This document shows, piece by piece, positions 7,574 to 57,100 of a stretch of DNA of 64,000 bases. Position 1 is the stretch's first letter. Each line of letters starts with the position of its first letter. Location: contig JADGDU010000015.1 in NCBI GenBank assembly GCA_016744705.1, positions 49,263 through 113,262 of the forward strand, given 5' to 3'. The notes below the pieces were generated by a model that saw nothing but the letters and a program-made list of their open reading frames with translations, was not told the DNA's origin and ran no database searches. Both the position numbers and the translations under genes were made by a program. Source of the DNA: Candidatus Krumholzibacteriia bacterium (GTDB lineage Bacteria; Krumholzibacteriota; Krumholzibacteriia; LZORAL124-64-63).

Positions 7574-7991
7574 ACATAGTCCTGAATGTCTGACACTACG
7601 CCCTGCCCTCCCAGCAATCAGAGGTGAACAGGGAGCCCGGAAGCCGCACAGAGCGTATCTCACGGTAGTCTGATTTATCCCCACGGCAGCAGATATCAGT
7701 TGTGGCCAGCACAGGGAAAGCTCAATACCTCAATTTGACCAACCTATAGGGCGACATCCTCCAATTGGAATTAAGTGTGCATTTTCCGAAACTAAGGGAA
7801 AGGTATTCCGTATAAGCCCCCTGTTGACGATGCTAGGGGGAAGCATTAGCTTGCATAAGTGAAAATTCCCAATCGTTCAGGTGCTGCTTTTGGCAGTGCC
7901 TATATTTTTTTGATTCCGGTACCCCAAGGGGGCGGGACCGGATACTTGTGATGTTTCGGTGTATTCCGGAATACCAACCATGGAGGCTTCA

Positions 7992-11955: not shown

Positions 11956-11990
11956 AGCCCGGGCCGTCATCAGACGGCCCGGGCTTTTCT
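11956..11990 (+). terminator. Rho-independent terminator after the M16 pair
   Basis: gagcccgggccgtc-atcag-acggcccgggct followed by tttct. Confidence 0.55.
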
Positions 11991-12061
11991 TGTGGTGGGC
12001 TTTCCCCTCTTGTGATACGATGGTTTCATATTTTGAGGGACTGTTCAAAGAGGGGGATTTC

Positions 12062-15000
12062 ATGAACAGGCTGATTTTCGTGTGTGCAATTGCTTTGGCA
12101 ATGATCGCCTTTGCTGTCCAGCCCATTCTGGCCCAAGACCAGTTGGGCATTTTTTTTGATGAAGAGGGGAACAGCAACTCCATCACCACCAGCACACCTT
12201 ACAGTCAGGTTTCGGCTTGGGTGCAACTGGTGGATCCCACGGCTGCGGAGGCTATCACCGGCTTCGAATTCCGGCTGGAAATTGGCACCGATGGCCCTGA
12301 TCCGATCCTTGTTTGGCAACTGCCTGTCATGGCCATCAACATTTTGGAAGAACCTTCATTTATGGTGGGTTTGGGTTCACCCCTGGCCATCGCGCCACGA
12401 GTGACCCTGGCAGAGTTGAATATTGTTGTGCCAGAGGCGGGGCAAACTGTTTGGCTCACTTTGCACCCTGTAGATACACCTTCCATGCTGGAGCCTGAGG
12501 GTTACGGTTATCCCGTTTGCCATCCTGTCTATTCTTTTGGTGAGGACAATGACTACCTGGCGATGCCTTCCAATTCCTCTTGCGAGTCTGCCCCGGTGGC
12601 TTCTCTTAATCCATCCGGACAGGCACCGCAATATCAGCTTTCGGAATTGCCTCCGGTGGTTGCCATCGGGTTGGAAAATGAAGAAAAGGTCATTGGTTCG
12701 CTTATTCTGACAAACCATGGCCCCGTCAGTTATTCCGGTGTGGTGTCGTCTACCGGGAGCACCCCTGTTCAAATTAATCTGGATGATCATTATTTCACAT
12801 CAGATTCCATCTCCTTCCAGGTTCCCGTGGGCGAAAGCATTCGCATCACTCCTAATTACAGCGGGGCCGGCTTCCTTGATGCCGTCTTGCAATTGGAAAT
12901 CTGTGGAGATGTGTGGGAGGTCCTGGTCTTAAGCGACGATGATTTGAAGCGCTGCGAGTGGAGTCCTGAGTTATTGGAATTTGGGGAAGTTTTCCAGGGC
13001 ACACCCGTATCTATGGAGGTTGAGTTAAAAAATACGGGTTATGTCGACTTGGTCATCCCCTACCAATTGTGGCAAGGACAGTTCAGGCTTGTGCGTAGGG
13101 ATCACACTATTGAGTTCTTGGATCCGGGAGAATCCTGCACTTATGAAGTGAATTTTTCTGCGGCCCAGATGGGAGACTCAGGCACAGTATTCAGCATTGA
13201 AAACCTGTGTTTTCTGACTGTAACTGCTACGGTCATACCTGGTCCTGCCGAATGCTCGGTCTCTGTCTCGACATTGGATTTCGGCGATTTTTATCTCGGG
13301 CAAGCTGCCGATAGCGAATCCTTTTCCATCCGAAATGTTGGCGGTGGTATTCTGGATGGATCCCTTGCTTTGATCGATACCACCGGGGCCTTTCAGCTCA
13401 GCAGTTGGTGTGAAACCAGCTATTCTCTGGTTCATTCCCAGCCCCATAACATTGGGGTTGAGTTTAACCCTTCAGCGGTAGGGAACTATAGCGCGGAAAT
13501 CGATTTGGGTTCTAGCTGCGGTAGTATTCAAATCACCGGAACGGCCATTGAAAGTGAACCTGAATGCCTTCTGTATGGCTACCCATATGCGGACGGGGTT
13601 CTGCCAATGCGCGCCATTCCCGTTGGTGGGGAGCGATTCGAATTTTTCCGGATCCGAAATGTTGGTGGCGGGATTTTGGCAGGTGAAGTCACCCTGGAAG
13701 ATACGACTGGGCTTTTTGAAATTCGTAGCAGTTTGGATTACTCCCTGGCCCACAACGGTTACATTTATGTCAGTGTGACATTCACTCCTCAGGAGGTTGG
13801 AGTCGTCTCAACAATTTTGCACACCGGGTCCATTTGTGGAGATGTCTTGGTGGTTGGTGAGGGGCTGGAGTCTTATGAAGACTGTTATTCCAGAATGTAT
13901 GCCAGGGAGTTCAACCGAGTGGCGGTGGGTGATACGGCGTATACTTCCGTATTGATTTACAATATCGGTTATACCGAATTGCATGGCGACTTCACGGTGG
14001 ATGGGGACAGTTTCGAAATGGCAAATCCCGGACCGTTTAGTTTGCCGGTCAATGGCAGTCTCTATGAATCTCTTCTGTTCATACCCCAAGCTGTTGGGGA
14101 GTTTGATGCTACTGTTTCCACAGGGCTTGACAGTTGCCCCGGCCATTGGGATGTGACGGGTTTGGCTGTTCCCGCGGGATCGGATCGCCTGGGGTTCTAC
14201 ATGGATCCGGAAGGCACAACCAATATCCTGGATACCTCCACACCCAAGGTTCGGGAAACAGTTTATGTTGTTTTAAAAAATCCCAGTGTGGGAGAATCAT
14301 TGGACAGTTGGTACCTCAACCATTGGACCAATGGCCCCGCCCTGACCATGGACGATTGGAGCACCTCTTTGCCTGGGCAGATCGAAGGTTCCAGTTATTC
14401 CAAGCGTTTTGAGGCCGATACACCGGTGCTCTTTTCGGAAACCATGGTGTTGGCGGAATTCTCTCTGTTAGTTCATGATTATACCGAGGCCAGCAAGGTA
14501 TCCATGGGATATGCCTGCTACTATCATGAAGGGCCGTTCTCCAATCATGTGAGAATTAACGATCCGGGCGACCTCTATATCAATTTCGACAAAAGCATGT
14601 TGAGTAACCTTCCGGCCACACCTTTGGCTGAACTCACCGGCAGCGCCGTGCAAATGACCTGGCCCTGTTCCCACTCCAATTTTGAAGGCTTCCATGTGTA
14701 CCGGCGCCTCGAAGGCGAGGTGGCGGAAAAGATGACCACGGACCCGATTTCCTGCCAAGAGGGGGTTGCCAGGTACGAAGACAAAGGCTGGGTTGCTGCA
14801 TGGGGCCGTGCATTTTATTCAGTTACAGCAGTGCATCAGGGCAAAGAGGGGCTGCCAAGCGAAGAAGTGGTGGTGGAATTTTCTCCTCAGGAAGACGAAA
14901 GCGCCCTTCCCGAACGCACTCGTTTGCTGGCCATCTATCCCAATCCCTTCAACCCGGCCGCTCACATCTCTTTCGAATTGGATCAGCCCGGCCTGGTGCA

Positions 15001-15190
15001 AATTCAAATCTACGATGTGGGAGGACGCTTGGTCCGCAGCCTGACAAACCGGCAGTTTGAGGCTGGTCAGTCTGAAGAAATCTGGAATGGACGGGATGAC
15101 GCAGGAAGGTCTGTGCCCAGCAATGTGTATTATGCCAGGATGAGGGCAGGAGCCGTAGTGCAGATGCAGAAAATGACGCTGTTGAAATAG
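12062..15190 (+). CDS. Large secreted T9SS cargo protein with repeated choice-of-anchor-D-like domains and C-terminal T9SS sorting domain
   Basis: Signal peptide MNRLIFVCAIALAMIAFAVQPILAQ. Repeated 'IRNVGGGIL(D/A)G...TTG(A/L)F(Q/E)' modules. The C-terminus 'LLAIYPNPFNPAAHISFELDQPGLVQIQIYDVGGRLVRSL...' is a Por_secretion-tail type-A CTD. The N- and C-proximal segments are related (LGIFFDEEGNSNSITTSTP / LGFYMDPEGTTNILDTSTP). Confidence 0.75.
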   Translation: MNRLIFVCAIALAMIAFAVQPILAQDQLGIFFDEEGNSNSITTSTPYSQVSAWVQLVDPTAAEAITGFEFRLEIGTDGPDPILVWQLPVMAINILEEPSFMVGLGSPLAIAPRVTLAELNIVVPEAGQTVWLTLHPVDTPSMLEPEGYGYPVCHPVYSFGEDNDYLAMPSNSSCESAPVASLNPSGQAPQYQLSELPPVVAIGLENEEKVIGSLILTNHGPVSYSGVVSSTGSTPVQINLDDHYFTSDSISFQVPVGESIRITPNYSGAGFLDAVLQLEICGDVWEVLVLSDDDLKRCEWSPELLEFGEVFQGTPVSMEVELKNTGYVDLVIPYQLWQGQFRLVRRDHTIEFLDPGESCTYEVNFSAAQMGDSGTVFSIENLCFLTVTATVIPGPAECSVSVSTLDFGDFYLGQAADSESFSIRNVGGGILDGSLALIDTTGAFQLSSWCETSYSLVHSQPHNIGVEFNPSAVGNYSAEIDLGSSCGSIQITGTAIESEPECLLYGYPYADGVLPMRAIPVGGERFEFFRIRNVGGGILAGEVTLEDTTGLFEIRSSLDYSLAHNGYIYVSVTFTPQEVGVVSTILHTGSICGDVLVVGEGLESYEDCYSRMYAREFNRVAVGDTAYTSVLIYNIGYTELHGDFTVDGDSFEMANPGPFSLPVNGSLYESLLFIPQAVGEFDATVSTGLDSCPGHWDVTGLAVPAGSDRLGFYMDPEGTTNILDTSTPKVRETVYVVLKNPSVGESLDSWYLNHWTNGPALTMDDWSTSLPGQIEGSSYSKRFEADTPVLFSETMVLAEFSLLVHDYTEASKVSMGYACYYHEGPFSNHVRINDPGDLYINFDKSMLSNLPATPLAELTGSAVQMTWPCSHSNFEGFHVYRRLEGEVAEKMTTDPISCQEGVARYEDKGWVAAWGRAFYSVTAVHQGKEGLPSEEVVVEFSPQEDESALPERTRLLAIYPNPFNPAAHISFELDQPGLVQIQIYDVGGRLVRSLTNRQFEAGQSEEIWNGRDDAGRSVPSNVYYARMRAGAVVQMQKMTLLK

Positions 15191-27723: not shown

Positions 27724-28983
27724 GTGCTGGATCGTAAATATCTTCGTGAAAACCAGGAATTGGTCACCCGGGCCGTGGCTCTGAAAAACGAATCCGTGGA
27801 CATTGGTGCCTATTATGCCAAGGACACCGAACGCCGGGCAGCCCTGCAGGAGATGGAAACACTCCAGGCCGAGGCCAACAAGGCCAACAAAGCCATCAGC
27901 GAGAAAAAGAAGGCCGGAGAGGATGCCTCCGGTGCCATCGCAGCCATGAAAGAAGTTTCGGGAAAGGTCAAAATTCTGAAATCCCGCGCTTCCGAACTGG
28001 AGGCCGAAGTGGATGCCCTTTATATGTGCATTCCCAACATTCCTCACGAAAGTGCTCCCGAAGGTGGCGAAGAGAATAACGAAACTGTACGCACCTGGGG
28101 CGAACCGGTGGATCCCGATTTTGAAGTATTGCCCCATTGGGAAATTGGCGAAGATCTGAACATTTACCATCCGGAGCGCAGCAGCCGCATGAGTGGTCGG
28201 GGTTTCACTGTGCTCTCCGGTGGTGGTGCCCGTCTTGAGCGAGCCCTCATCAATTGGTTTCTGGATGTGCACATGGAGCAGGGTTACACCGAATTCAGCA
28301 TCCCCTTCCTGGCCAACCGCACGGCTCTCACTGGCACCGGCCAGTTGCCCAAGCTGGAAGATGACATGTATTTGGCCACAGAGGATGACCTCTTTCTTAT
28401 CCCCACAGCTGAAGTGACCATCACCAACATACACATGAAAGAGACTCTCCAGCTGGAAAGCATGCCCCGGCAGTACACCGCAGCCTCGGCCTGTTTCCGG
28501 CGGGAAGCGGGAGCTGCGGGCAAGGATACCCGGGGCCTGGTCCGGGTGCATCAATTCAACAAAGTTGAAATGGTGAAGTTTGTGGATCCCGAGACTTCCT
28601 GGGATGAACTGGAGAAACTGACCGCCGATGCCGAATACTTGCTGCAGCAACTGAAATTGCCTTACCGTGTGCTGAGCCTGGCCACGGGCGATCTCAGCTT
28701 TGCCGCCTGCAAATGTTATGACCTGGAAGTGTATTCCGCTGGCGTAAAGTCCTGGCTGGAAGTCTCCTCCTGCAGCAATTTCCTGGATTTCCAGGCCCGC
28801 CGTGCCGGAATCCGTTTTAAGGGTGATGGACGCAAGGGTTATGTGCACACCATCAACGGGTCTGGCCTGGCGCTGCCCCGTATTCTGGTGGCGATCATGG
28901 AGAATTACCAGACAGCGGATGGCCGCATCCGCATCCCCGAAGTTTTGGTGCCCTACATGGGCGGAGCGGAGTTCATCGAGTAG
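27724..28983 (+). CDS. serS: Seryl-tRNA synthetase
   Basis: The N-terminal coiled coil and class II motifs (FRREAGAAGKDTRGLVRVHQFNKVE; GSGLALPR) are present. The GTG at 27724 gives M-LDRKYLREN, aligning with the canonical MLDxxLLR. An in-frame ATG at 27682 is the alternative. Confidence 0.85.
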   Translation: MLDRKYLRENQELVTRAVALKNESVDIGAYYAKDTERRAALQEMETLQAEANKANKAISEKKKAGEDASGAIAAMKEVSGKVKILKSRASELEAEVDALYMCIPNIPHESAPEGGEENNETVRTWGEPVDPDFEVLPHWEIGEDLNIYHPERSSRMSGRGFTVLSGGGARLERALINWFLDVHMEQGYTEFSIPFLANRTALTGTGQLPKLEDDMYLATEDDLFLIPTAEVTITNIHMKETLQLESMPRQYTAASACFRREAGAAGKDTRGLVRVHQFNKVEMVKFVDPETSWDELEKLTADAEYLLQQLKLPYRVLSLATGDLSFAACKCYDLEVYSAGVKSWLEVSSCSNFLDFQARRAGIRFKGDGRKGYVHTINGSGLALPRILVAIMENYQTADGRIRIPEVLVPYMGGAEFIE

Positions 28984-28984
28984 G

Positions 28985-30232
28985 ATGCTGACCAAAATTT
29001 GGCAAACAGGAATTCCCTGGCTGCGCAAGCGGTACGTATTCAATATTTATCTGCTTCTGGGCAGCCTGAGCATTGTTGTGGCCACGACCATTTTCACATT
29101 CAAGGTTTCCAAAAGTGTCGAGCGCCAAAGTTTCCTCACCACCAAGCTTTTGTCTGGTGTGGCCAGCCGTTTGTTCTCTGCTGAAAATGTTGAAGATGTG
29201 CTACCGATCATTGCCATCATCAACGAGAATGAAGTGCCTTTCATTCTGACAGATAATGCTGGGCGGCCCTTCATGTGGAACCCGCCGGTGATCGGAATCC
29301 CTTTGCCCAACTACCAGATTTTGCTCACGGAAAATGTGAATAGCACCCGCAATCCGGTGATTCTGGAAATCCTATCTCTGGCTGCGAAATATGACATGGA
29401 GCAAGAACCGTTTGCCATCGTGGACGAAAATGGAGTCCGCAAGGGAACCCTGCATTATGGTCGTTCGGCGTTGAGCCAGCGGTTGCGCATCATGCCCTAT
29501 CTTGAACTGATGATCATGGCGTTGTTTTTCCTGCTGATCCTTTGGGCGCTGCAAAGCAAGAAGGACGCCCAACAACAGGCCCTGTTCGCCGGAATGGCCA
29601 AAGAAACAGCGCACCAGTTGGGCACTCCATTGACCTCGATCATGGGCTGGATTGCTTTGTTGGAAGACAAGGTGGGAAAAGATAAAGAAGTTATGGTGGA
29701 GCTGAACCGCGATGTGGACCGGCTGAGCATGATCTCTACCCGATTTGGCCAGATAGGCTCGTTGCCCAAGTTGCAGGATACCGACCTGAACGAACTGGTG
29801 GACGAGTCGGTGGAGTATTTTCAAAAACGTCTGCCCCATCACGGGGGCCGTGTGCAACTCAGGCGTGAAGGCCAGGCCAGCCAGTTGGTGAGCTTTAACC
29901 GGGACTTGATGGGCTGGGTTTTGGAGAACCTGATCCGCAACGGCATCGACGCTTTGGTGGATGGAAAAGGCACCATCACCGTGCGGGTGGAGGATCATCC
30001 AGCGGGTGGTTTGTTGATCTCAGTGGCCGATACGGGCAAGGGTATCCCGGCCCGGGTGGGGAACAAAATCTTTGAACCCGGTTTCACCACAAAGAAGCGT
30101 GGCTGGGGCATGGGACTGGCTCTGGTCAAACGCATCGTCACCGATTACCACAGCGGCCGCATCACCGTGGAGGCCACCAGTAGCCACGGCACAACTTTTC
30201 ACGTGGTTTTACCGCCGATGTTGGAACAATAA
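28985..30232 (+). CDS. Sensor histidine kinase (2 TM, small periplasmic loop; PorY-like)
   Basis: The ATG at 28985 is 1 nt after the serS stop. TM1 is YVFNIYLLLGSLSIVVATTIFTF. The H-box is 'ETAHQLGTPLTSIMGW'. HATPase G-boxes are 'TGKGIP...GWGMGLALV'. Confidence 0.75.
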   Translation: MLTKIWQTGIPWLRKRYVFNIYLLLGSLSIVVATTIFTFKVSKSVERQSFLTTKLLSGVASRLFSAENVEDVLPIIAIINENEVPFILTDNAGRPFMWNPPVIGIPLPNYQILLTENVNSTRNPVILEILSLAAKYDMEQEPFAIVDENGVRKGTLHYGRSALSQRLRIMPYLELMIMALFFLLILWALQSKKDAQQQALFAGMAKETAHQLGTPLTSIMGWIALLEDKVGKDKEVMVELNRDVDRLSMISTRFGQIGSLPKLQDTDLNELVDESVEYFQKRLPHHGGRVQLRREGQASQLVSFNRDLMGWVLENLIRNGIDALVDGKGTITVRVEDHPAGGLLISVADTGKGIPARVGNKIFEPGFTTKKRGWGMGLALVKRIVTDYHSGRITVEATSSHGTTFHVVLPPMLEQ

Positions 30233-30243
30233 AGGAGCCTGTT

Positions 30244-31809
30244 TTGGCGTATAAAATTTTATGGATCGATGATCATATAGAAGAGCTTCGCTCGCACACC
30301 ATGTACCTGGGTGAGAAGGGGTACGAGGTGGAAGGAGTGACCAACGGCATGGATGGCCTGGCCATGCTCCGGGAACAAAATTTCGAAGCCATTTTGTTGG
30401 ATGAAATGATGCCTGGTATGGGTGGATTGGAAACCCTGGAAGGCATCCGGAAGATCGATCCGAACATTCCGGTGATCATGGTCACCAAAAGCGAAGCCGA
30501 AGATTTGATGACCCGGGCCATCGGCAAGCGCATTGACGATTACCTGGTTAAGCCGGTCAGTCCGATCCAGGTGTTGTCTGCCCTGAAGCGCCAGGTGGAA
30601 GCGCGCAAGCTGACCGGTGAAGAAGTCACCCGCGACTACATGAGCAACTTCATGGCAGTGACCGACCGCATTGCCCTGGCCAAGAGCCCTGCCGATTGGG
30701 AGGGCATTTATTCCGATCTCGTCACCTGGGGCATGGACCTTTTTCAGTACAGTGATCATGGGTTGCTGGAGACCCAGGGTGAACAATTGATGGCCGCTAA
30801 TTTGGCCTTTGGTAAATATGTAAGGGAGAATTATCACAGTTGGATTCACGCTAACCCAGAAACATCCGGCAAGGATATCCCTCTGTTCAGCCCCCGTGTC
30901 TATGAAGAACTCATTGAGCCGGAAGTCCAGCGCAGCCGGCAGGTTTTCTGGATCACCATCGATTGCATGCGTTTGGATCAGGTGCGAATGATAGAGCCGC
31001 TTCTGGAACCCTATTTCCACATCAATCGCCAGCATTACTGGTCCATGCTGCCTACGGCCACGCCCTATGCACGCAATGCCTTGTTTGCTGGGATGTATCC
31101 CGAGGATATTGCCAAAAACTATCCCAAATGGTGGTTGGATGGGCATCACGAAGGCAGCCGCAATGCTTACGAAGGAGAACTGCTGAACGAGCAGCTCAAT
31201 CGTATTGGCAGCGCTGCTTCCGGCAGTTGTAAATATTATAAGATTGCCGATGAACGGGATGTGGATCCTTTGCACCGGAACCTGGGCAGCATGGGTGATA
31301 CGCGTCTGGTGGCTGCTGTTTATAACTTCCTTGATATCATGGCCCATGGCCGCAGTCAGAACCGGATTTTGAAAGAGCTGGCGCCAAATGAAGCGGCCTT
31401 CCGGACCCTCATGCGCACCTGGTTCGAACACTCGAACCTTTTTGATATTCTCAAGAGTTTGTCCCGGCGCGATTGCACGGTGATTTTAACCACCGACCAC
31501 GGGTCCATGTTTTGCCGCCGCAGCATGAAAATCAGGGGCAATCGCGATACCAGCAGTAACGTGCGCTACAAATTTGGCGACAACCTGGGCACCGACGATG
31601 AACGCATCCTGTTGATGAAAAAACCTGGTGATTTCCGTTTGCCGGCCCATTCTTCCATTGAGAATTACGCCGTCACTTCAGAGAATTTCTATTTGGTGTA
31701 TCCCACGAATTTCCACGAGTACGAACGCCTGTACCGAGACAGTTTCCAACATGGAGGCATCAGCGTCGAAGAGATGATCTGTCCCTTTGTGACCCTGAGG
31801 CCGAGGTGA
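30244..31809 (+). CDS. Response regulator with REC domain fused to PglZ (alkaline-phosphatase-superfamily) domain; PorX-like
   Basis: The REC domain is 'ILWIDDH...LLDEMMPGMGG...VIMVTKS' with the phospho-Asp in 'LLDEMMPG'. The C-terminal ~380 aa carry 'ITIDCMRLDQ' and 'LTTDHGS' metal-site motifs of PglZ. The 521-aa size is the same as P. gingivalis PorX. Confidence 0.7.
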   Translation: MAYKILWIDDHIEELRSHTMYLGEKGYEVEGVTNGMDGLAMLREQNFEAILLDEMMPGMGGLETLEGIRKIDPNIPVIMVTKSEAEDLMTRAIGKRIDDYLVKPVSPIQVLSALKRQVEARKLTGEEVTRDYMSNFMAVTDRIALAKSPADWEGIYSDLVTWGMDLFQYSDHGLLETQGEQLMAANLAFGKYVRENYHSWIHANPETSGKDIPLFSPRVYEELIEPEVQRSRQVFWITIDCMRLDQVRMIEPLLEPYFHINRQHYWSMLPTATPYARNALFAGMYPEDIAKNYPKWWLDGHHEGSRNAYEGELLNEQLNRIGSAASGSCKYYKIADERDVDPLHRNLGSMGDTRLVAAVYNFLDIMAHGRSQNRILKELAPNEAAFRTLMRTWFEHSNLFDILKSLSRRDCTVILTTDHGSMFCRRSMKIRGNRDTSSNVRYKFGDNLGTDDERILLMKKPGDFRLPAHSSIENYAVTSENFYLVYPTNFHEYERLYRDSFQHGGISVEEMICPFVTLRPR

Positions 31810-47009: not shown

Positions 47010-48113
47010 GTGACTCATGTTCTTCTGGACAGAAACCTCGAAGCGGGAAAAAGCATTCGCCACTGGCTGGGCCGGTGGGGGATGACCATGGGAGAATTTG
47101 ATTCCCGCCCATCGAACGTCCAGTGGCCATCCATTCTGGCATGCGATTTGGTGATTCTGGGTTCTGGTGCCGCCGAAAAAATGGCAGCAGATCCAGTGTT
47201 GGCCGAATATGATTCTCTGGCGCCTGTTCTCCTGCTGGGCGTTCCTGGGTCCCTCCTCCTTCCCCGGGACGCCTGGCAGGCGCTGCCTCAATCGAATCCT
47301 GATTCCAACCAACTGCGATTGGCGCTGCAAACGTGTCTGGAAAAGTCAGCTTTGATGCGTCATGAAGCGGCATCAGGACAAGACCGTGAAGAATTCCTCT
47401 CCTTTCTGGGCCACGAAATGCGCAGTCCTCTGACGGCCACCAAAACGGCTTTGGAAGTTTTGCAGGGCGATCTTGGTGGTCTTGAATCGGACAACGGTGT
47501 CGCCAAACCCCATTTGAAAATGTTGGAAATTGCTCTGCGGAATGTGCGTCGTTTGCACCATACCGTGGAGTGGAGCCAGGAGCTGATGGCATCATCTCCT
47601 GTGCGTCAGAACCTTCAGCTTGGTCCTGTGGAAGGGGAACAACTGGCGGCAGCTCTGGGGAATAAGACTGCGACCCATTGGGACCCGGCTGCCACCCACT
47701 TGACGGTGCATACGGATGCCGATGGTCTGTCCATGGTCATGGAACAAGTGGACCGAGCCCTGCACTATGCCTTACCTCATTGCCGACCCTTGTGGAGTGC
47801 CCAATGCTCTGCTGAAACAGAGGGTGCCCTGAGCCTGACACTGTCTCCTGCCGTTGGCAGTGTTCAGGACGGGGCCCCTCGGGTTTCTCGTCTGGGATTG
47901 GCTTCAGCCACCGCCAAGGCTGATACGTCAGCCGGGGAGCTGGAACGATTGCTTCGGTTTGTCGTGTCTGGAGTTTTGGTGTCCTGTTTGGGAGTGAAGG
48001 TGGATGTGGTTCATCCAGAAGGAAATCTACCCGGAATCAGGATCCAGGTACCCGCAGCCAAGGAGGCAGTGGAAAAATATCCGACAGTTGGACAGTTGCT
48101 TACTCTGGCCTGA
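47010..48113 (+). CDS. Signalling protein with HisKA-like dimerisation/phosphoacceptor motif but no recognisable HATPase domain (REC-like N-terminus?)
   Basis: The H-box-like motif is 'EEFLSFLGHEMRSPLTATKTALEVL'. The C-terminal 200 aa lack N/G1/G2 boxes. The GTG start is at 47010. Confidence 0.5.
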   Translation: MTHVLLDRNLEAGKSIRHWLGRWGMTMGEFDSRPSNVQWPSILACDLVILGSGAAEKMAADPVLAEYDSLAPVLLLGVPGSLLLPRDAWQALPQSNPDSNQLRLALQTCLEKSALMRHEAASGQDREEFLSFLGHEMRSPLTATKTALEVLQGDLGGLESDNGVAKPHLKMLEIALRNVRRLHHTVEWSQELMASSPVRQNLQLGPVEGEQLAAALGNKTATHWDPAATHLTVHTDADGLSMVMEQVDRALHYALPHCRPLWSAQCSAETEGALSLTLSPAVGSVQDGAPRVSRLGLASATAKADTSAGELERLLRFVVSGVLVSCLGVKVDVVHPEGNLPGIRIQVPAAKEAVEKYPTVGQLLTLA

Positions 48114-48151
48114 GGTGTATTATCTGTGGGACGTGTGAGAGGGGATAAGCC

Positions 48152-49327
48152 GTGTCGTGCGGCTGTTTCTGTTTTGCCACAACCCGGGTAGGATGCGCTT
48201 TGTCAGGCCAAAACAAATTGTCGGAAAATGAAATCGCTGCCGTCGTCCATGATGTGCGGCAAATGTTGGCTGTGATCACTGGCCGGACTGGGCTTTTAAA
48301 CCGGACCATTGATGGACAGGTTGCCCAGGATAGTCTGAGCGTCATAGCTTCTGCCGCAGAGCAAGCCAATGCCACATTATCCCGATTGCTGGATCCAGCC
48401 AAAGCACAGAATTCTGGTAGCTGCGATGTCTTTCAAGCTCTGCTCCAATCTTCCCGGCTGATCCAACCGAAGCCTGGTATGGCCTGGCAATCTGGCCCTG
48501 TCCCCTCGAACAAGAAGGACGGTAGTTGGCATCTCGGGGTAAACCTGGAGAGAGGCTGTTTCACCACCATCGCTTCTACTATTTTACTGGAAGTATTAAA
48601 TAACCTGCTGCGCAATGCTCTGGACGCTATGCCTGACGGTGGCCAATTGACGACCCACATGCAGCGGGTGGGGGAATATTGGCATCTCCGGTTGCAGGAC
48701 TCCGGCCCGGGAATTCCTGAAGATCGCAGGGATCATATTTTTGAGTTGGGGTTCAGCACAAGTGGGGATGAGGCTCGTGGTATTGGTCTTTCATCCTGCC
48801 GGGACCTTCTGGTTGTGCATGGGGGAAATTTGAAACTGATGGATTCATCACTTGGCGGGGCTTGTTTCGAGTTGATCCTGCCCTTCACCCCAACGAAACC
48901 CGAATCTCCTCTGGAAACCACCTGCGAGCAAGAGGTGCATTTCCGGCCTTCTATCCTGGTCGTGGATGATGATGAAGGGGTGCGGGAAATGCTGCAGGAT
49001 GTTCTGGTGGAACTGGGATGCCAGGTCAAAGTGGCCAGGGATGCACCTGATGCGGCTGAAATCTTCCCCTCCGAGCCCTTTGAGATGGTTATTATTGACC
49101 AAACACTGCCTGGAATGAGCGGCCTGGAATTTGCGGGAGAGTTGCGGCAGCAGCATCCCCAATTGGTTCTGGTGCTGATTTCCGGCTGGGGCCAGGAGGA
49201 AGTTCTGGACAAAGCCCTGGGGTCGGTGGTTGATTTGGTTGGTGAAAAGCCAATCACCGTGGATAAAATTATAGAAATGTTGAATCAGGCTGGGGTGCTG
49301 CGTAACCACCGGCTCGAGAGATCCTAG
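48152..49327 (+). CDS. Hybrid histidine kinase without sensor domain (HisKA + HATPase_c + C-terminal REC)
   Basis: 'AAVVHDVRQMLAVI' (H-box). The HATPase boxes are 'LLEVLNNLLRNALDAM...DSGPGIP...GIGLSSCRDLLVVHGG'. The REC domain is 'ILVVDDDEGVREML...VIIDQTLPGMSG...LVLISGWG'. Confidence 0.7.
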   Translation: MSCGCFCFATTRVGCALSGQNKLSENEIAAVVHDVRQMLAVITGRTGLLNRTIDGQVAQDSLSVIASAAEQANATLSRLLDPAKAQNSGSCDVFQALLQSSRLIQPKPGMAWQSGPVPSNKKDGSWHLGVNLERGCFTTIASTILLEVLNNLLRNALDAMPDGGQLTTHMQRVGEYWHLRLQDSGPGIPEDRRDHIFELGFSTSGDEARGIGLSSCRDLLVVHGGNLKLMDSSLGGACFELILPFTPTKPESPLETTCEQEVHFRPSILVVDDDEGVREMLQDVLVELGCQVKVARDAPDAAEIFPSEPFEMVIIDQTLPGMSGLEFAGELRQQHPQLVLVLISGWGQEEVLDKALGSVVDLVGEKPITVDKIIEMLNQAGVLRNHRLERS

Positions 49328-49370
49328 CCGGGAGCTCTCCCATATTCATTGCTGAGGAAAGGCATCGCCG

Positions 49371-50162
49371 ATGAAAGCCAGCCCAAATCAAATCTTCTCG
49401 CTGACCCTGTTTGTGGTTATCAGCATTCTGATAACCGGAACTGTTTTAGCAGCGGATAACAATGCGGGCTACGGCCCGGATGTCACTCTTTCCTTCAGCC
49501 GCCTTGATACCCTAATGCTCCCCGCTTTAGGAAATATCAGCGGTCTGACCTGGATGGGGCCGGACACTCTGGTGGTGCTCAATGATATCCCCGACAGCCT
49601 GAGTGAATCGGGAGACCGGGAAGTGAGGATGACTTTCCAGGACCGGGAAGGAGAAATCCTCAGGATGGAAGATTTTACGGGCGTGCTGCACCGGGGCCTG
49701 GCCTGGGATGGTGAATTCCTTTTCAGCTGTGGTGACGCTGATGATGGCAGCTCTATTCTCTACCGCATTGAACCAGATACCCTGATGGTGGAGGAAGCCT
49801 TTGATGCCCCTGGGAACCGCCCCAGTGGCATGTGCTATGATGGACGGTTTGTCTGGATCACCGACCGGGATACGGGACGCGTGGATCGATTCGATAATGA
49901 AGTGGGCGAGATCACACGTTCGGTGGTGACCCCAGGCTTTTCACCTTTCGGTGTGACATTTGATGGCAAATATATGTGGATCACCGACAGTGGCTCCGGC
50001 CGTCTGTACCGCTTGACCGGAGCGCGCCGCCGTTGGAGTGCCACCGTAAGCACGGATTCTTTCATGATGCGCGGTGAAAATGTTCTCCTGCTTCATGATG
50101 GACAGTCTTTTTGGTATGTGCCAGAAGGCGAGCATTTCGCCGTACGCATCCAAATGCAATGA
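49371..50162 (+). CDS. Secreted beta-propeller-like repeat protein (possibly plant/bacterial-type glutamine cyclotransferase-like)
   Basis: A signal peptide is present. The repeated blades are 'LTWMGPDTLVVLND', 'LAWDGEFLFSCGD', 'MCYDGRFVWITDRDTGRV', 'VTFDGKYMWITDSGSGRLYRL'. The functional call is tentative. Confidence 0.4.
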   Translation: MKASPNQIFSLTLFVVISILITGTVLAADNNAGYGPDVTLSFSRLDTLMLPALGNISGLTWMGPDTLVVLNDIPDSLSESGDREVRMTFQDREGEILRMEDFTGVLHRGLAWDGEFLFSCGDADDGSSILYRIEPDTLMVEEAFDAPGNRPSGMCYDGRFVWITDRDTGRVDRFDNEVGEITRSVVTPGFSPFGVTFDGKYMWITDSGSGRLYRLTGARRRWSATVSTDSFMMRGENVLLLHDGQSFWYVPEGEHFAVRIQMQ

Positions 50163-50232
50163 TTTACCGGGATTGAGGACGGTGTGATATATCACCCTTC
50201 TTGACAGTGGGTTTTTTCGTCATTATCCTAAA

Positions 50233-50255
50233 GTCGAAAATAGTTTTCATTTTCG
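50233..50255 (+). promoter_or_regulatory. Perfect palindromic operator-like site (TCGAAAAT-N7-ATTTTCGA) ~45 nt upstream of fur; a TCATTATC Fur-box half-site is adjacent
   Basis: Read directly: tcgaaaat agttttc attttcga, with 'gtcattatc' at ~50212-50221. Confidence 0.45.
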
Positions 50256-50299
50256 AAATGGATGAAAGCCGGCTCACGCCGGAAACCCAGAGGTAGATC

Positions 50300-50818
50300 A
50301 TGACTGAGAAAACGACCACATCTCCAGTGAACCAGGACCTGGTTCGGGAAAAAGAGAGTGCGTTTGCCAAGTATATTCAGGAAAAGGGACTGAAAACCAC
50401 TCGCCAGAGAAATACGATTGTTAATGTGTTTTTCAACCTGAGGGGCCATATTTCAGTGGAAGAACTTCTCAAAGAAGTTAAAAATGTTAACCCTCGCATC
50501 GGCTATGCCACGGTGTACCGTACCCTGCATTTGCTGGTTGAGAGCAATTTGGTGGAAGAACGGCGTTTTGGCGATGGACTGGCCCGGTACGAAGGCCACT
50601 CTGACGTGGAACACCATGATCATATGATTTGCCTGGAGTGCGGTGAAATTTCAGAATTTTACAATCCCCGCCTTGAGGCTTTGCAGGAAAAATTGGCGGA
50701 AGATAACAACTTCCAGATTTTCCGGCATCGTTTGGAACTGTATGGAGCCTGCAAGGACAAGGACGCCTGTGAAGGAAGACAGAACACGAAAAAAGCAGCT
50801 CGAGCTCACGGCGGATGA
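50300..50818 (+). CDS. fur: Fur family transcriptional regulator (Fur/Zur/PerR)
   Basis: The wHTH is 'RQRNTIVNVFF...HISVEELLKEV...YATVYRTLHLL'. The metal sites are 'HHDHMICLECGEI' and 'HRLELYGACKDKDAC'. Confidence 0.8.
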   Translation: MTEKTTTSPVNQDLVREKESAFAKYIQEKGLKTTRQRNTIVNVFFNLRGHISVEELLKEVKNVNPRIGYATVYRTLHLLVESNLVEERRFGDGLARYEGHSDVEHHDHMICLECGEISEFYNPRLEALQEKLAEDNNFQIFRHRLELYGACKDKDACEGRQNTKKAARAHGG

Positions 50819-52653: not shown

Positions 52654-53838
52654 ATGTTCCAGAAGAAATCATTCCACCTTGTAGCCATAGCTTTGATGCT
52701 GGCGGTCGTCATGACCGGCTGCAGTGATAGTGACAGCAATCCGTCCGAAACTTCTATGACTGGCACTGATGTTTACGAGGGTATGGATTTCACTTTGCCT
52801 TACGCTGGATTGACCATCTCTGATGAATACGAAGCCTTCGACGACGACTCTTTGTTGGAGATGATGGTAGCCGAAGATGAGGATGTGTACGAAGATCCGG
52901 TGGGGGATGATCCGGAAATTCAGGAGTTACAAAACCAGGGAAACCGCCCGGGGAATGCCAACGATCCCACTCGGCCACGTTTCACTTTCCTGCGGCTGCG
53001 TTGGGGCATGGTTCGCGGCCCTGAAGATTCCCTGCTAGTGCCCCTGCCTCCCTGTGATATATTGGATTGGTCTGGTGAAATCAGCACTGATCGGGGGATT
53101 CTCCTGGTTCGGCGTGTTCTGCGCTTTGAGCGTCCCATGGACCACTTGGTTCTTCCCCGTGAAGATCGCCATACTTTAAATTTCACCTCGCACACGGCCT
53201 GCCATTACGATGGTTTGCTGCTGGAAATTATCGAGCGTCCTGGAGATTATAGCCTGGAAAATGATGAGCCAAACAGGTTGCACATCACCGCTGGCCCTTA
53301 TGCTGGCGAATATGAAATCGAAGCTTTGGCCGGCCTGAATGAAACCATTGAGGTGGATGACCAGGGTAACCTGATGCAGTTGAATGGATTTAATCTGAGT
53401 GATACCGCCTACTGCCCCAAGGGCTTTTTGGCTGGGCGTTTCCGTCATTTTCCCGATGATCGTGGCCAAGGGGAGCTGGATGAGAATGACCCGGGCACTC
53501 ACATCGGACGCATGACTGGTGTCTACACCGATCTGACTGGACGCATCAGTGGTTTCATGCGCGGGGGATATGGCCTCGATTCTGAAGGAAACCGGGTCTT
53601 CTTCGCTAAGTATATCGGGCGACGAGGTGGTTTCCGCGGGTTGATGACTGGGACTTGGGAACCATCCGATAACCCCCGTGATTTGAGCACTTTCGAGGGC
53701 CATTGGATCACCGCCTCCGGTGAGGTCGAGGGCTTGCTGGGGGGCACTGCCCAGGCTGTGGACGACTACCCGGGCGGGTTCTATGAAGGTCGTTGGACTG
53801 CCATCTGTGACGGCGAGGCTGAAGAGCAAATTCAGTAG
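52654..53838 (+). CDS. Lipoprotein of unknown function, immediately upstream of the C25 peptidase pair
   Basis: The signal peptide plus lipobox is 'LAVVMTGC|SDSDSN'. An acidic N-terminal region is followed by a ~300-aa domain. An AGGAGGGG RBS is present. Confidence 0.5.
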   Translation: MFQKKSFHLVAIALMLAVVMTGCSDSDSNPSETSMTGTDVYEGMDFTLPYAGLTISDEYEAFDDDSLLEMMVAEDEDVYEDPVGDDPEIQELQNQGNRPGNANDPTRPRFTFLRLRWGMVRGPEDSLLVPLPPCDILDWSGEISTDRGILLVRRVLRFERPMDHLVLPREDRHTLNFTSHTACHYDGLLLEIIERPGDYSLENDEPNRLHITAGPYAGEYEIEALAGLNETIEVDDQGNLMQLNGFNLSDTAYCPKGFLAGRFRHFPDDRGQGELDENDPGTHIGRMTGVYTDLTGRISGFMRGGYGLDSEGNRVFFAKYIGRRGGFRGLMTGTWEPSDNPRDLSTFEGHWITASGEVEGLLGGTAQAVDDYPGGFYEGRWTAICDGEAEEQIQ

Positions 53839-53871
53839 ATGATCAGAATCTAACATTTTCGTGAGCTTTTT

Positions 53872-53906
53872 CGGAAGGGCGGCCCCACAGAGCCGCTCTT
53901 CTTTTG
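53872..53906 (+). terminator. Terminator-like hairpin followed by a T-rich tract
   Basis: gaagggcggcc-ccacagag-ccgctcttc (one mismatch), then ttttgatgttttggtgttttgtttg. Confidence 0.4.
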
Positions 53907-54148
53907 ATGTTTTGGTGTTTTGTTTGCGAAAAAGATGCATTTGTTTTGTGGGGTTCGGTAACTTCCTAAGTTGCAGCACGTTAGCTGTAGTCGCTGGGAG
54001 GCATTGGCCCCAAAGCATGTGCCCTTGACCACCAGCTCCTGCCTAATCTGCAAGGGTTTTCGCCAAAACTCCGGCAGAAATGCTAAAATTACTTATGATT
54101 TTTTAAAGAGATTTTGAGTGTGACGGTTTTACGTAACCGGAGGTTGCA

Positions 54149-57100
54149 ATGCGGAAAGTGCTGTTTTTGGTTTGGGTGATTGTTCTGACGGTGGGGTCTG
54201 CCTCCGGGGCCACCGCTGGATGGATCAGTTTCGACAAACAGGAAATGGCATTCCCCCAGATCCAGGCCAGGCGACAATCTGAGAGTCTCACTGTCGTGGA
54301 TATCACCATGAGCGGCCTGGAAAGCAATGTCGTGATGGTCCAGGGGCAACCCCATGATCAGATTCGCATTCCCGGGCATTGGTTCACTCTGGAAGCAGGT
54401 CAGCCGGAACTTCCTTTCATCACCAGCAGCCTGGTCATTGCCGACAGTGGCAATCCGGTGGTGCGGGTGCTCAATAGCACCTGGCGGGAAATTTCTGCTC
54501 ATCCGGTTCTCCCATCCAAGGGTTCTATTCTGCGCACGGAAGATCCGGCCACAGTGCCTTACGCTTTTGGTGCTGTTTATCAAAGCAGGGATGTCTTTCC
54601 CGCATCTGAGGTCCAACTGAACGAACCATACATCATGCGTGACGTGCGAGGCGTGAGTTTGCGCATCAACGCCGTGCGCTGGGATGTGGAGCGGGGCGTC
54701 TTGCTGGCCTTGGAAAGCATGACCCTGGAAGTGGAAACTTCCGGTGCGGGGGGAATCAACTCTCGGCAGGGAAAAATGCAGAGTGGCATCGACACCCAGT
54801 TCGCCCAACTTTATAATCAGGCTTTTGACAATTACGAGAACCCCGCCAAATACAACATGGTGGCCGTTGATGGCCGCATGCTGGTAGTGTGCCACGATTC
54901 CTTTTTGGGCACCATTGATCCCTTTGTGCAATGGAAGCGTTCCACCGGCATAGATGTGCAGGTCATCAGCACTGGTAGTGTAGGGGGAACCTCCCTGGGT
55001 ATCCAGAGCGCCATCGATTCTCTGTATGCCGAACCAGAAGGATTGACTTATGTGATTCTAGTGGGAGATCAAGCTCAAGTGCCCTCCTACACCGGAACCT
55101 TCGAAGGCGCTGATGACGATACTCGCTATGGCAATATCGAAGGTGATGACCTTTATCCAGACCTCTTCGTGAGCCGCATCTCGGGCTCCAACCCGGTGGA
55201 TATTCAAACCCAGATCAACAAATTTATTCGTTATGAACGGGATCCTGATGCTGGTGCCGATTGGTATCATCTCGGGGCGGTGTTAGCCTCCAGCCAGGGC
55301 GACCCCTCGGACTCTGAGCGTGCCGGTTGGTTGCGCGATGACATGTTGAATTACACCTTCACTCAGGTGCACGAAGTTTTTCAGCCCGAAGGTGATACCG
55401 CTGATATTACCGACGCCGTCAATGGCGGAGTCAGTCTGATCAATTATCTCGGCCATGGCTCGGGCACGTCCTGGACCAATCCCCACTTTACGCAGGCCGA
55501 TATCAATGCCCTGAGCAATGGATGGCAGAACCCCTGGATTTTGGACGTGAGCTGTTCCAACGGAGACTTCTCCACCGACGAATGTTTTGCCGAAGCCTGG
55601 ATGCGTGCCGGTGACCCGGCCCAGCCCCAGGGAGCTTTGGCCACTTACAGCGCATCCACCACAACGCCCTGGATTCCCCCCTGTGTGATGCAGGCTGAAG
55701 CAGTGGATCTGATGGTGGCGAACCAGGCCACGGTGTTGGGCTCTCTGTATTTTCACGGCATCATGAAGGTGATGGACGTATACCCGGGCAATAGCCAACT
55801 GGTGGAACAGTACAATGTTTTTGGCGATTGTTCGTTGCAGATTCGCACCAATACACCAGTGGTGCCGGCGATGCAGTATGACGATGTACTGGCCCTGGAG
55901 GCCACGGTGTTTCCCGTGGATACAGGTCTTGAAAATTGTCGGGTGGCTTTGTACAGCGGGCAGCAATTGCACGGTGTGGGCGTAACCGATGCGCAGGGTC
56001 ATGTGGACATTTCCCTGACCAACCCAGTGACTGTTCCCGGCCCGGTGAGTATGACGGTAACAGGGTACAATGTATTGACCCAGGTCCTCACTCTGCAAGC
56101 GGAAGTCCCCGTGGTGGTGGACATTCAGCCGTCCTCAATTCCCGTGGGTCAGACTACGGATATAACGGTGACTTTGTCAGATTCACCAGCCCTGGCTTCC
56201 CTGGAAAATGTGACGGTTACGGTGGAAGGTTTTGGTGTGCAAGCTGTGCAGGGGCTCACCGGTGTTGACGGTGTGGCTACCATCAGTGTGACTCCTGAAT
56301 TTGGCGAAAATTTGACTGTGCGGGGCGTGGAGTTCGGCGCCGGATATGACATGTTCAGCGTAGATTTGGGCGTCAGCGGTGCCTTGGATCTGACCCAGGC
56401 AAATATAGTTGCTGAAGTGGCTGCCATCGGTATGATCGATACCCTGACTCCGGATTGGGAAGGCACCATTACTGGTACCAGCGATGTGGCTGATTTCGAC
56501 ATTAAAATCAAGGGGCCCGGCCTGGATGTTCTGGCCAGGGGATCTGGATACTCCCTGGTGCAAAATGTGACTCCGCTGGGCACGGGTGTGGTTTATGCCA
56601 CCTTGCTGAAAACCGGTTACAACATCTATCAATCGGAAATCCAAGTGATTCCTGCCTATGGAACCCTCGGGGGATCGATCACGGCTTCTGGTGGAGCAAC
56701 TCTTGATGGAGTGCGCGTTTTTGGATTCCACACGGGAGATGATCCCCAGGGAGAACCAGTCTTTGATCTGGTCAGCGATGCCACCGGCGAATTCAGCAAT
56801 CCGGTCCAACTGCCTTCCGGAAGTTACGATTTGTATGCCCGTAAATACGGGTATTTGGATTATGCCGAAACCTTTGTGCTGGAGCACGGGGCCAATGACC
56901 ATGATGTGGTCATGGACCTCTCTCCAGTGGGAGTTCTTACCGGACAAATTTCAGCTCTTGAAGGTGGTGCGGCCATCAATGCCACCATCCAGGTTATCCG
57001 CCTGGATAACAACGACCAAATGGCCTTGGTGATGACCGACGAACTGGGGCGATACACCTGTCCGGAATTGCCTTTTTATGACTACCGGATGATTGTGACC

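Follow-up and report, generated by a model that had tools for sequence, protein, structure and literature searches.

What keeps a short sequence nearly unchanged upstream of two gingipain-like C25 protease genes when the DNA around it has drifted apart? The window, by which we mean the whole 64,000-nt stretch of Krumholzibacteriia DNA analysed here, encodes two such proteases, C25_1 and C25_2, one after the other, and both have the domains of T9SS cargo. To our knowledge nothing is known of gene regulation in Krumholzibacteriota, and very little of the control of T9SS cargo proteases beyond Porphyromonas. Among the matches listed in a search of the Krumholzibacteriota literature, none of the titles and abstracts concerned regulatory motifs. 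The original prediction for this locus described the short sequence as a regulatory site or a conserved leader RNA. On the comparative sequence evidence below, the reading that we favour, at a probability of about one half, is that the element is a putative distal protein-binding DNA site belonging to a phased promoter module in front of the C25 genes.

A conserved block precedes both C25 genes

The two 23-nt sequences, TTTCGTGAGCTTTTTCGGAAGGG at 53857-53879 (copy a) and TTTCGTGAGCTTTTCGGGAAGGG at 58872-58894 (copy b), align without gaps and agree at 21 of 23 positions, as originally described. Each starts 292 nt 5' of its C25 start codon, and the two copies are offset by 5015 nt. They are the sole matches in the 64-kb window at up to three mismatches, and 100 dinucleotide shuffles of the window produced no match at the same threshold. 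The conserved block extends a further 6 nt at its 5' end (TAAC-N2), giving a 29-nt element with the consensus TAAC-N2-TTYCGTGARCTTTKYNGGAARG (Table 1). It contains no clear palindrome and no clear direct repeat, which counts against its being a DNA site.

Ungapped comparison of the two upstream regions gave 85-90% identity in the element block and 15-40% everywhere else, so the view that the remainder had diverged was borne out. When gaps were allowed, further conserved islands emerged, namely the ribosome-binding site CCGGAGG and, about 65 nt ahead of the ATG, TGnTAAAATT; in neither comparison were the regions uniformly similar. The C25_1 and C25_2 proteins are 59% identical, and their genes share 43% identity at 4-fold degenerate sites. 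The pair of elements is therefore not the residue of a recent duplication, which is also what the original prediction had argued. The mechanically called open reading frame of C25_2 begins at 59098; the conserved ribosome-binding site CCGGAGG and the alignment of orthologs back 59164 as the true start, in line with the original prediction.

Table 1. Features of the window that are discussed in the text. Element scores are those of the 28-nt position weight matrix (PWM).
Feature	Position	Strand	Details
Large T9SS-tail protein	11990-15190		FlgD_ig/Por_Secre_tail; no element upstream
PorY-like histidine kinase	28802-30232
PorX-type response regulator	30244-31809		REC + PglZ; ~22 kb upstream of the C25 genes
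Fur-family protein	50300-50818
ORF394, predicted lipoprotein	52654-53838		Lipobox MTGC; no Pfam or NCBIfam family
Element copy a, 29 nt	53851-53879	+	TAAC AT TTTCGTGAGCTTTTTCGGAAGGG; 43 bits; orthologs L001, L003, L005-L009, L011, L015, L017
Intrinsic terminator of ORF394	53873-53912	+	Stem GGAAGGGCGGC/GCCGCTCTTCT; -19.2 kcal/mol; T-rich tail
Central motif, copy a	53959-53983	+	TAACTT...N...TTA; ~+100 to +122 from element core
Predicted sigma-70-type promoter of C25_1	54060-54089	+	TCGCCA-N18 with TG-TAAAAT; promoter scan and conservation
C25_1	54149-58837	+	Propeptide_C25 + Peptidase_C25 + CarboxypepD_reg + P_proprotein + FlgD_ig/Por_Secre_tail (T9SS cargo)
Element copy b	58866-58894	+	TAAC GA TTTCGTGAGCTTTTCGGGAAGGG; 44 bits; orthologs L002, L006, L007, L008
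Central motif, copy b	58975-58999	+	TAAGTTGTTTTTTGGAAGATCCTTA; alignment of copies
Predicted sigma-70-type promoter of C25_2	59078-59107	+	TTGATC-N18 with TG-TAAAAT; promoter scan and conservation
C25_2	59164-63858	+	Paralog of C25_1; same domains, Propeptide_C25 to FlgD_ig/Por_Secre_tail

The element is conserved at two positions in related genomes

An exact-pattern scan of 185,579 reference genomes, one per species, returned two hits. Both were in Krumholzibacteriota MAGs and both were syntenic with the window, one lying 3' of an ORF394 ortholog (L001) and the other between C25 orthologs (L002). A metagenome scan with the C25 N-terminus yielded three further loci, and contigs were taken for 11 of the 71 clusters of the ORF394 family. 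The sampled contigs share a gene neighbourhood made up of a HisKA protein, a hybrid kinase/receiver, an NHL-like protein, Fur, alanine racemase, TerB, ORF394 and one or two C25 genes. Altogether, 16 distinct copies of the element were collected from at least 11 genomes (at least 10 assemblies besides the window), at two paralogous positions. Eleven copies occupy position a, between ORF394 and C25_1 (window, L001, L003/L004, L005-L009, L011, L015/L016 and L017), and the others position b, between C25_1 and C25_2 (window, L002, L006, L007 and L008).

Across 14 aligned copies GTGA.CTTT and GG were invariant. The 28-nt PWM scored 34-47 bits at the 14 sites from which it was built, and the next-best match on both strands of ~300 kb, including the window and its relatives, scored 11.6 bits. 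Together with the two syntenic hits among the reference genomes, this indicates that the element is not scattered at random. The 11.6-bit match, at window position 7774 upstream of an M16 peptidase pair, had neither the central motif nor the promoter geometry described below and was taken as chance. An extension of the idea to other T9SS cargo genes found no support in the window, where the sole other confirmed T9SS-tail gene has no element upstream (Table 1).

The a and b copies bear separate lineage-specific signatures, so gene conversion is not what keeps them alike. The element was absent 3' of the last C25 gene (window, L009, L011, L015 and L017), where a plain terminator stands instead; in the window this is a strong one at ~63889-63922. 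It was also absent 3' of ORF394 homologs without a C25 gene after them (L012, L013 and L014), although the loci lacking the element, including L010 described below, are all in more distant genomes, and its presence or absence is thus confounded with phylogeny.

A functionless sequence is very hard to reconcile with these observations. It could be a neutral remnant of tandem duplication, a gene-conversion patch or an attC-like recombination site: the two copies lie as direct repeats on either side of C25_1, the number of C25 genes varies between one and two among genomes, and ATCTAAC matches the integron inverse core RYYYAAC. However, flanking synonymous sites are near saturation (43%), the element is kept in genomes that have only one C25 gene (L003, L009, L011, L015 and L017), and the signatures of the a and b copies differ. 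An attC-like site would further call for an integrase, a paired GTTRRRY core or other cassettes, and none of these was found. Conservation across genomes in itself already contradicts the absence of function. The alignments show conservation well above neutral at a unique position, which supports the conclusion that the element is under purifying selection, specific to DNA 5' of C25 genes and fixed in position. Judged by these comparisons, it is a selected, clade-specific cis element, whose motif is new and whose general kind is known.

The element merges with the terminator of the upstream gene

Copy a starts 12 nt past the stop codon of ORF394, and copy b 28 nt past that of C25_1. The element's TAAC supplies a TAA in the reading frame of the upstream gene, exactly four codons past its stop codon, in L002b and 8 of the 11 a copies (53836-53854 in the window); this could be a tandem back-up stop, or the mere consequence of a fixed 12-nt spacer. 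At position b, the window, L006, L007 and L008 have a conserved extension of their own (58843-58865 ahead of the window element, 58843-58869 with its TAAC), containing a 16-nt internal duplication (TAAGTTCAATAAC / TAAGT-ATAAC) that shifts the element from 21 to 37 nt past the stop codon. The duplication is missing from L002b.

A terminator-like hairpin had been noted as abutting the first copy. The hairpin is real (53873-53902, followed by TTTGATGTTT), but the two features overlap: the 5' arm has its base in GGAAGGG, the final 7 nt of the element, and the rest of the element lies outside the stem. Terminators with predicted folding energies of -16 to -28 kcal/mol and a T-rich tail follow all 11 a copies as well as L002b and L006b, the tail being weak in L017a. 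Downstream of window copy b (58895-58940) a hairpin is present at 58912-58933 and the U tract is absent, so that the sequence does not qualify as an intrinsic terminator. The hairpin is absent at L008b and the terminator is weak at L007b, and both loci keep the element. Because window copy b and L008b have an intact element beside a decayed terminator, the element is not simply a terminator part.

The hairpin itself shows compensatory changes, with two to four standard pair types at each of the upper-stem positions +19 to +25 among 13 copies (here and below, positions are numbered from the G of GTGA in the element core). In the lower 5' arm, the G residues contributed by the element never vary, while their partners alternate between U, C and unpaired. 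Selection acts on the sequence itself, beyond its pairing. Between C25_1 and C25_2, the window (58895-58960) and L008 (16240-16290) have a decayed terminator, and L002 and L006 an intact one. In the window genome, C25_1 and C25_2 may be co-transcribed, besides having promoters of their own.

The element lies ~205 nt upstream of the predicted C25 promoter and 5' of the terminator. If transcribed, it would therefore belong to the 3' UTR of the upstream gene, which contradicts the conserved 5'-leader RNA of C25 that had been offered as an alternative. Location in a 3' UTR that is expected to be transcribed, merged with the terminator, counts against a DNA site and fits an RNA role equally well. 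Textbook 3'-UTR sRNAs, CpxQ and SroC among them, are built in this way, with a conserved stretch and a terminator after a stop codon. By analogy, single-stranded UUUCGUGAGCUUUUUCGG plus the terminator hairpin could form a 3'-UTR-derived sRNA with a seed acting in trans, a site where an RNA-binding protein controls mRNA stability, or a control on termination or on read-through into C25. In agreement with such a role, the element starts 9-13 nt past the upstream stop codon in 11 of 11 a copies and in L002b, and it leads straight into a strong terminator in these same copies and in L006b. Its core is predicted to be unpaired, and its contiguous 13-nt invariant block is seed-like.

Several results speak against an RNA element all the same. 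It is kept at window copy b and L008b, which have lost the terminator, and at L007b, which has a weak one, and four b copies accept the 16-nt insertion between stop codon and element. No covarying structure was found within the element: RNAalifold gave a trivial 5-pair stem without compensatory change, and a candidate hairpin (UUUCG[loop]CGGAA) was rejected since it showed no covariation and single-sequence folds were inconsistent. Rfam returned no match near either copy at E-values up to 10. Duplex energies between the element and the C25 5' UTRs, including the Shine-Dalgarno sequence, were no better than those of shuffles (mean z -0.28 for these 5' UTRs, the only targets scored). An RNA element would also leave unexplained the 100 + 22 + 100 spacing over untranscribed, unstructured DNA that is set out in the next section. 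Collectively, these results make an RNA element in the 3' UTR less likely than a DNA site, but it is the main rival and still carries real weight, given the anatomy of the a copies.

Element, central motif and promoter are held at fixed spacing

A promoter scan identified one sigma-70-like site with an extended -10 (TTGnnn-N18-TGnTAAAAT) before each C25 gene. This near-consensus promoter type, preceded by an A-tract, is kept in all 16 copies and in L010. A 19-nt block of the promoter, AAAAATGGTAAAATTMC, is conserved beyond what a promoter alone needs. Exactly midway between element and promoter lies a central A/T-rich motif, gTAAsTtgTTtttt, whose AA falls at +98 to +101 (sd 0.8) and which is followed by an invariant TTA exactly 22 nt past the AA in 14 of 14 aligned copies. 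In all but one of the 16 copies the TG of the -10 stands at +219 to +225, with an sd of 1.7 for the 14 that were aligned. In these 15 copies, the distance from the element is thus 100±1 nt to the central TAAST..TTA and 222±2 nt to the promoter. L015 conforms, at +99, +121 and +223. In the remaining copy, L017, the TG stands at +210, closer by about one helical turn. At the place of the central motif, L017 has a perfect IHF consensus, TATCAATGGATTG.

The claim of a fixed distance thus holds across the 16 copies, but the point of reference is the promoter (219-225 nt in 15 copies and 210 nt in one) and not the ATG, to which the distance ranges from 277 to 308 nt. The interval from -10 to ATG has an sd of 8 and is looser than the element-promoter spacing. 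For comparison, these genomes have TerB-ORF394 spacers of 190 to 237 nt. The constrained geometry is the strongest of the results. Between the three anchors, the sequences of the a and b copies cannot be aligned. Strict helical phasing would allow less play than the ±3 bp seen, and the spacer shows a weak 10.5-bp A/T periodicity (z = 2); a nucleosome-like A/T periodicity was dropped as an explanation on account of this weak signal.

Six-frame translation of 14 copies found no frame in the spacer that is open across copies, and minimum free energy z-scores for structured RNA in the 145-nt spacer averaged ~0 on both strands. Since the spacer is noncoding and forms no stable RNA structure, its length constraint is best explained at the level of DNA. 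A DNA-level role for the element is likewise favoured by the combination of its spacing to a promoter that is not transcribed, its retention without a terminator and its invariant G residues.

Locus L010 is informative on both sides. Its ORF394-C25 spacer is 130 nt, element, central motif and intervening spacer are all absent, and a promoter of the same type abuts the terminator. Joint loss of element, central motif and spacer suggests that the module behaves as one unit. That a C25 gene has the same promoter type without the module counts against the DNA-site reading.

We propose, as a model, that a length-constrained module of ~240 bp precedes every gene for a C25 protease (gingipain-like T9SS cargo) in one clade of Krumholzibacteriota. 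Its layout would be the element, ~100 bp, the central A/T-rich motif (TAAST, 22 nt, TTA), ~100 bp, the extended -10 promoter, a 5' UTR of variable length and the ATG. A sequence-specific DNA-binding regulator would sit on the element and control the C25 promoter from ~235 bp upstream, either by looping the DNA or by wrapping it into a nucleoprotein complex, the apex or bend being at the central motif. The last 7 nt of the element would double as the base of the upstream terminator stem. The sequence comparisons show directly the conservation above neutral, the unique position, the fixed spacing to central motif and promoter and the survival of the element without the terminator; protein binding, looping and the sign of the regulation are what we infer.

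When both strands were scanned with the PWM over positions +40 to +310, a second operator such as classic loop systems have did not turn up consistently; the best match scored 8 bits at one locus. Like the loose tolerance and the weak periodicity, this counts against the model. This single match, in L001, had suggested an inverted second operator at the promoter and was rejected, being absent from the b copies and from distant copies. An invertible promoter flanked by inverted repeats was rejected too, as only short A/T-rich complementarities such as CTTTTTCGGAA/TTGCGAAAAAG were present and these are unconserved.

The element lacks the geometry of an ECF or sigma-54 promoter

The original prediction named an ECF-sigma site as one possible form of the regulatory site, possibly linked to a PorX-type regulator. 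In this case the element would be an alternative-sigma promoter (ECF- or SigP-like) or the start of a long C25 leader. TATAAC directly 5' of the core does look like a -10, or like an ECF -35 of TGTAAC type; GTAAC/GTAAG-N16-TTA in the central motif is spaced like a promoter; and a PorX/PorY-like pair is encoded in the window. However, ECF geometry (AAC, 16-17 nt, CGT) was not seen on inspection of the 14-copy alignment, where the gap between TAAC and CGTG is 5 nt. At the distance past TAAC at which an ECF -10 would be expected, the only invariant residues are GG, and the GC-rich covarying hairpin, variable in sequence, follows. A transcript starting at the element would reach the terminator within 50 nt, G takes the place of the ECF-diagnostic C of the central AAC in 9 of 14 aligned copies, and the scan yielded extended -10 promoters only. 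We therefore consider a promoter at the element improbable.

The conserved promoter, TTGnnn-N18-TGnTAAAAT, does not match a sigma-54 promoter either, as it has no -24 GG and -12 GC. The fur gene of the conserved neighbourhood prompted a look for a Fur box (GATAATGATAATCATTATC, with at least ~13 of 19 positions required at a conserved place), which was rejected: the best matches were 10-13/19 per intergenic region, no better than shuffles in most copies. A Fur-box-like GAAAATGATAAT occurs at +64 only in L002b and L005a (13/19, not significant).

Neighbouring genes and wider meaning

The ORF394 family is specific to Krumholzibacteriota, with 71 clusters, and is encoded directly 5' of C25 in every sampled locus that has a C25 gene. 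ORF394 may be a functional partner of the C25 protease. In the two most distant, GC-rich loci, the ORF394 homolog (L013, 5938-7305; L014, 5870-7261) does not adjoin a C25 gene. It follows genes for a sigma-54-dependent two-component pair and for a C1 peptidase that bears a T9SS-type tail, a sign that the regulatory setting of the family differs there. A block at 47010-50818 of the window, coding for the HisKA protein, the hybrid kinase/receiver without an output domain, the NHL-like protein and the Fur-family regulator, lies upstream of the locus and is syntenic in all close relatives.

With its 29-nt element, exact spacings, the loss variant in L010 and the variants without a terminator, the module is a defined and testable cis-regulatory unit. 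The element could be used as bait for the regulator of gingipain-like proteases in Krumholzibacteriota. The module also exemplifies strong selection on the length of a spacer whose sequence is free to drift. Since the motif is clade-specific and its general kind is known, wider impact is likely to be modest.

A bolder version of the module is conceivable, though we hold it to be unlikely. Element, central motif and promoter would together make up an undescribed "measured" three-site nucleoprotein switch, in which an element acting both as DNA and as RNA ties the place where the upstream transcript ends, at the terminator base, to control from a distance of the gingipain-like gene that comes next. 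Were this so, each C25 gene would be insulated from its neighbour and yet coordinated with it, by an architecture peculiar to the T9SS protease genes of an uncultured phylum.

Comparison with known regulatory systems

Among well-known systems, the PorX/PorY-SigP pathway of Porphyromonas gingivalis is related in subject, as it concerns the regulation of gingipain-family and T9SS genes, and the window encodes a PorX-type regulator and a kinase. PorX footprints on P. gingivalis porT are two A/T-rich 25-mers, at -106/-83 and -39/-14, without a defined consensus (PMC8050853). The element has no convincing similarity to these footprints and is not an ECF-type promoter.

The likeness to 3'-UTR sRNAs (CpxQ, SroC and DapZ) lies in a conserved unpaired stretch between stop codon and Rho-independent terminator, and in an element that is more conserved than the synonymous sites of the gene. 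The element departs from them in outlasting the terminator, in its fixed spacing to a downstream promoter and in showing no complementarity to the C25 5' UTRs beyond that of shuffles.

Looping operators offer a further parallel (araO2-araI1 at ~210 bp; GalR OE/OI with HU at the apex; enhancer, IHF and promoter). They share with the module a short site at least ~200 bp upstream at a constrained distance, and an A/T-rich motif midway, where an architectural protein or a bend would sit and where L017 has its perfect IHF consensus. Unlike these systems, the module does not repeat the site at the promoter, and it has a sigma-70 rather than a sigma-54 promoter, a loose tolerance of ±3 bp and a candidate site that overlaps a terminator stem.
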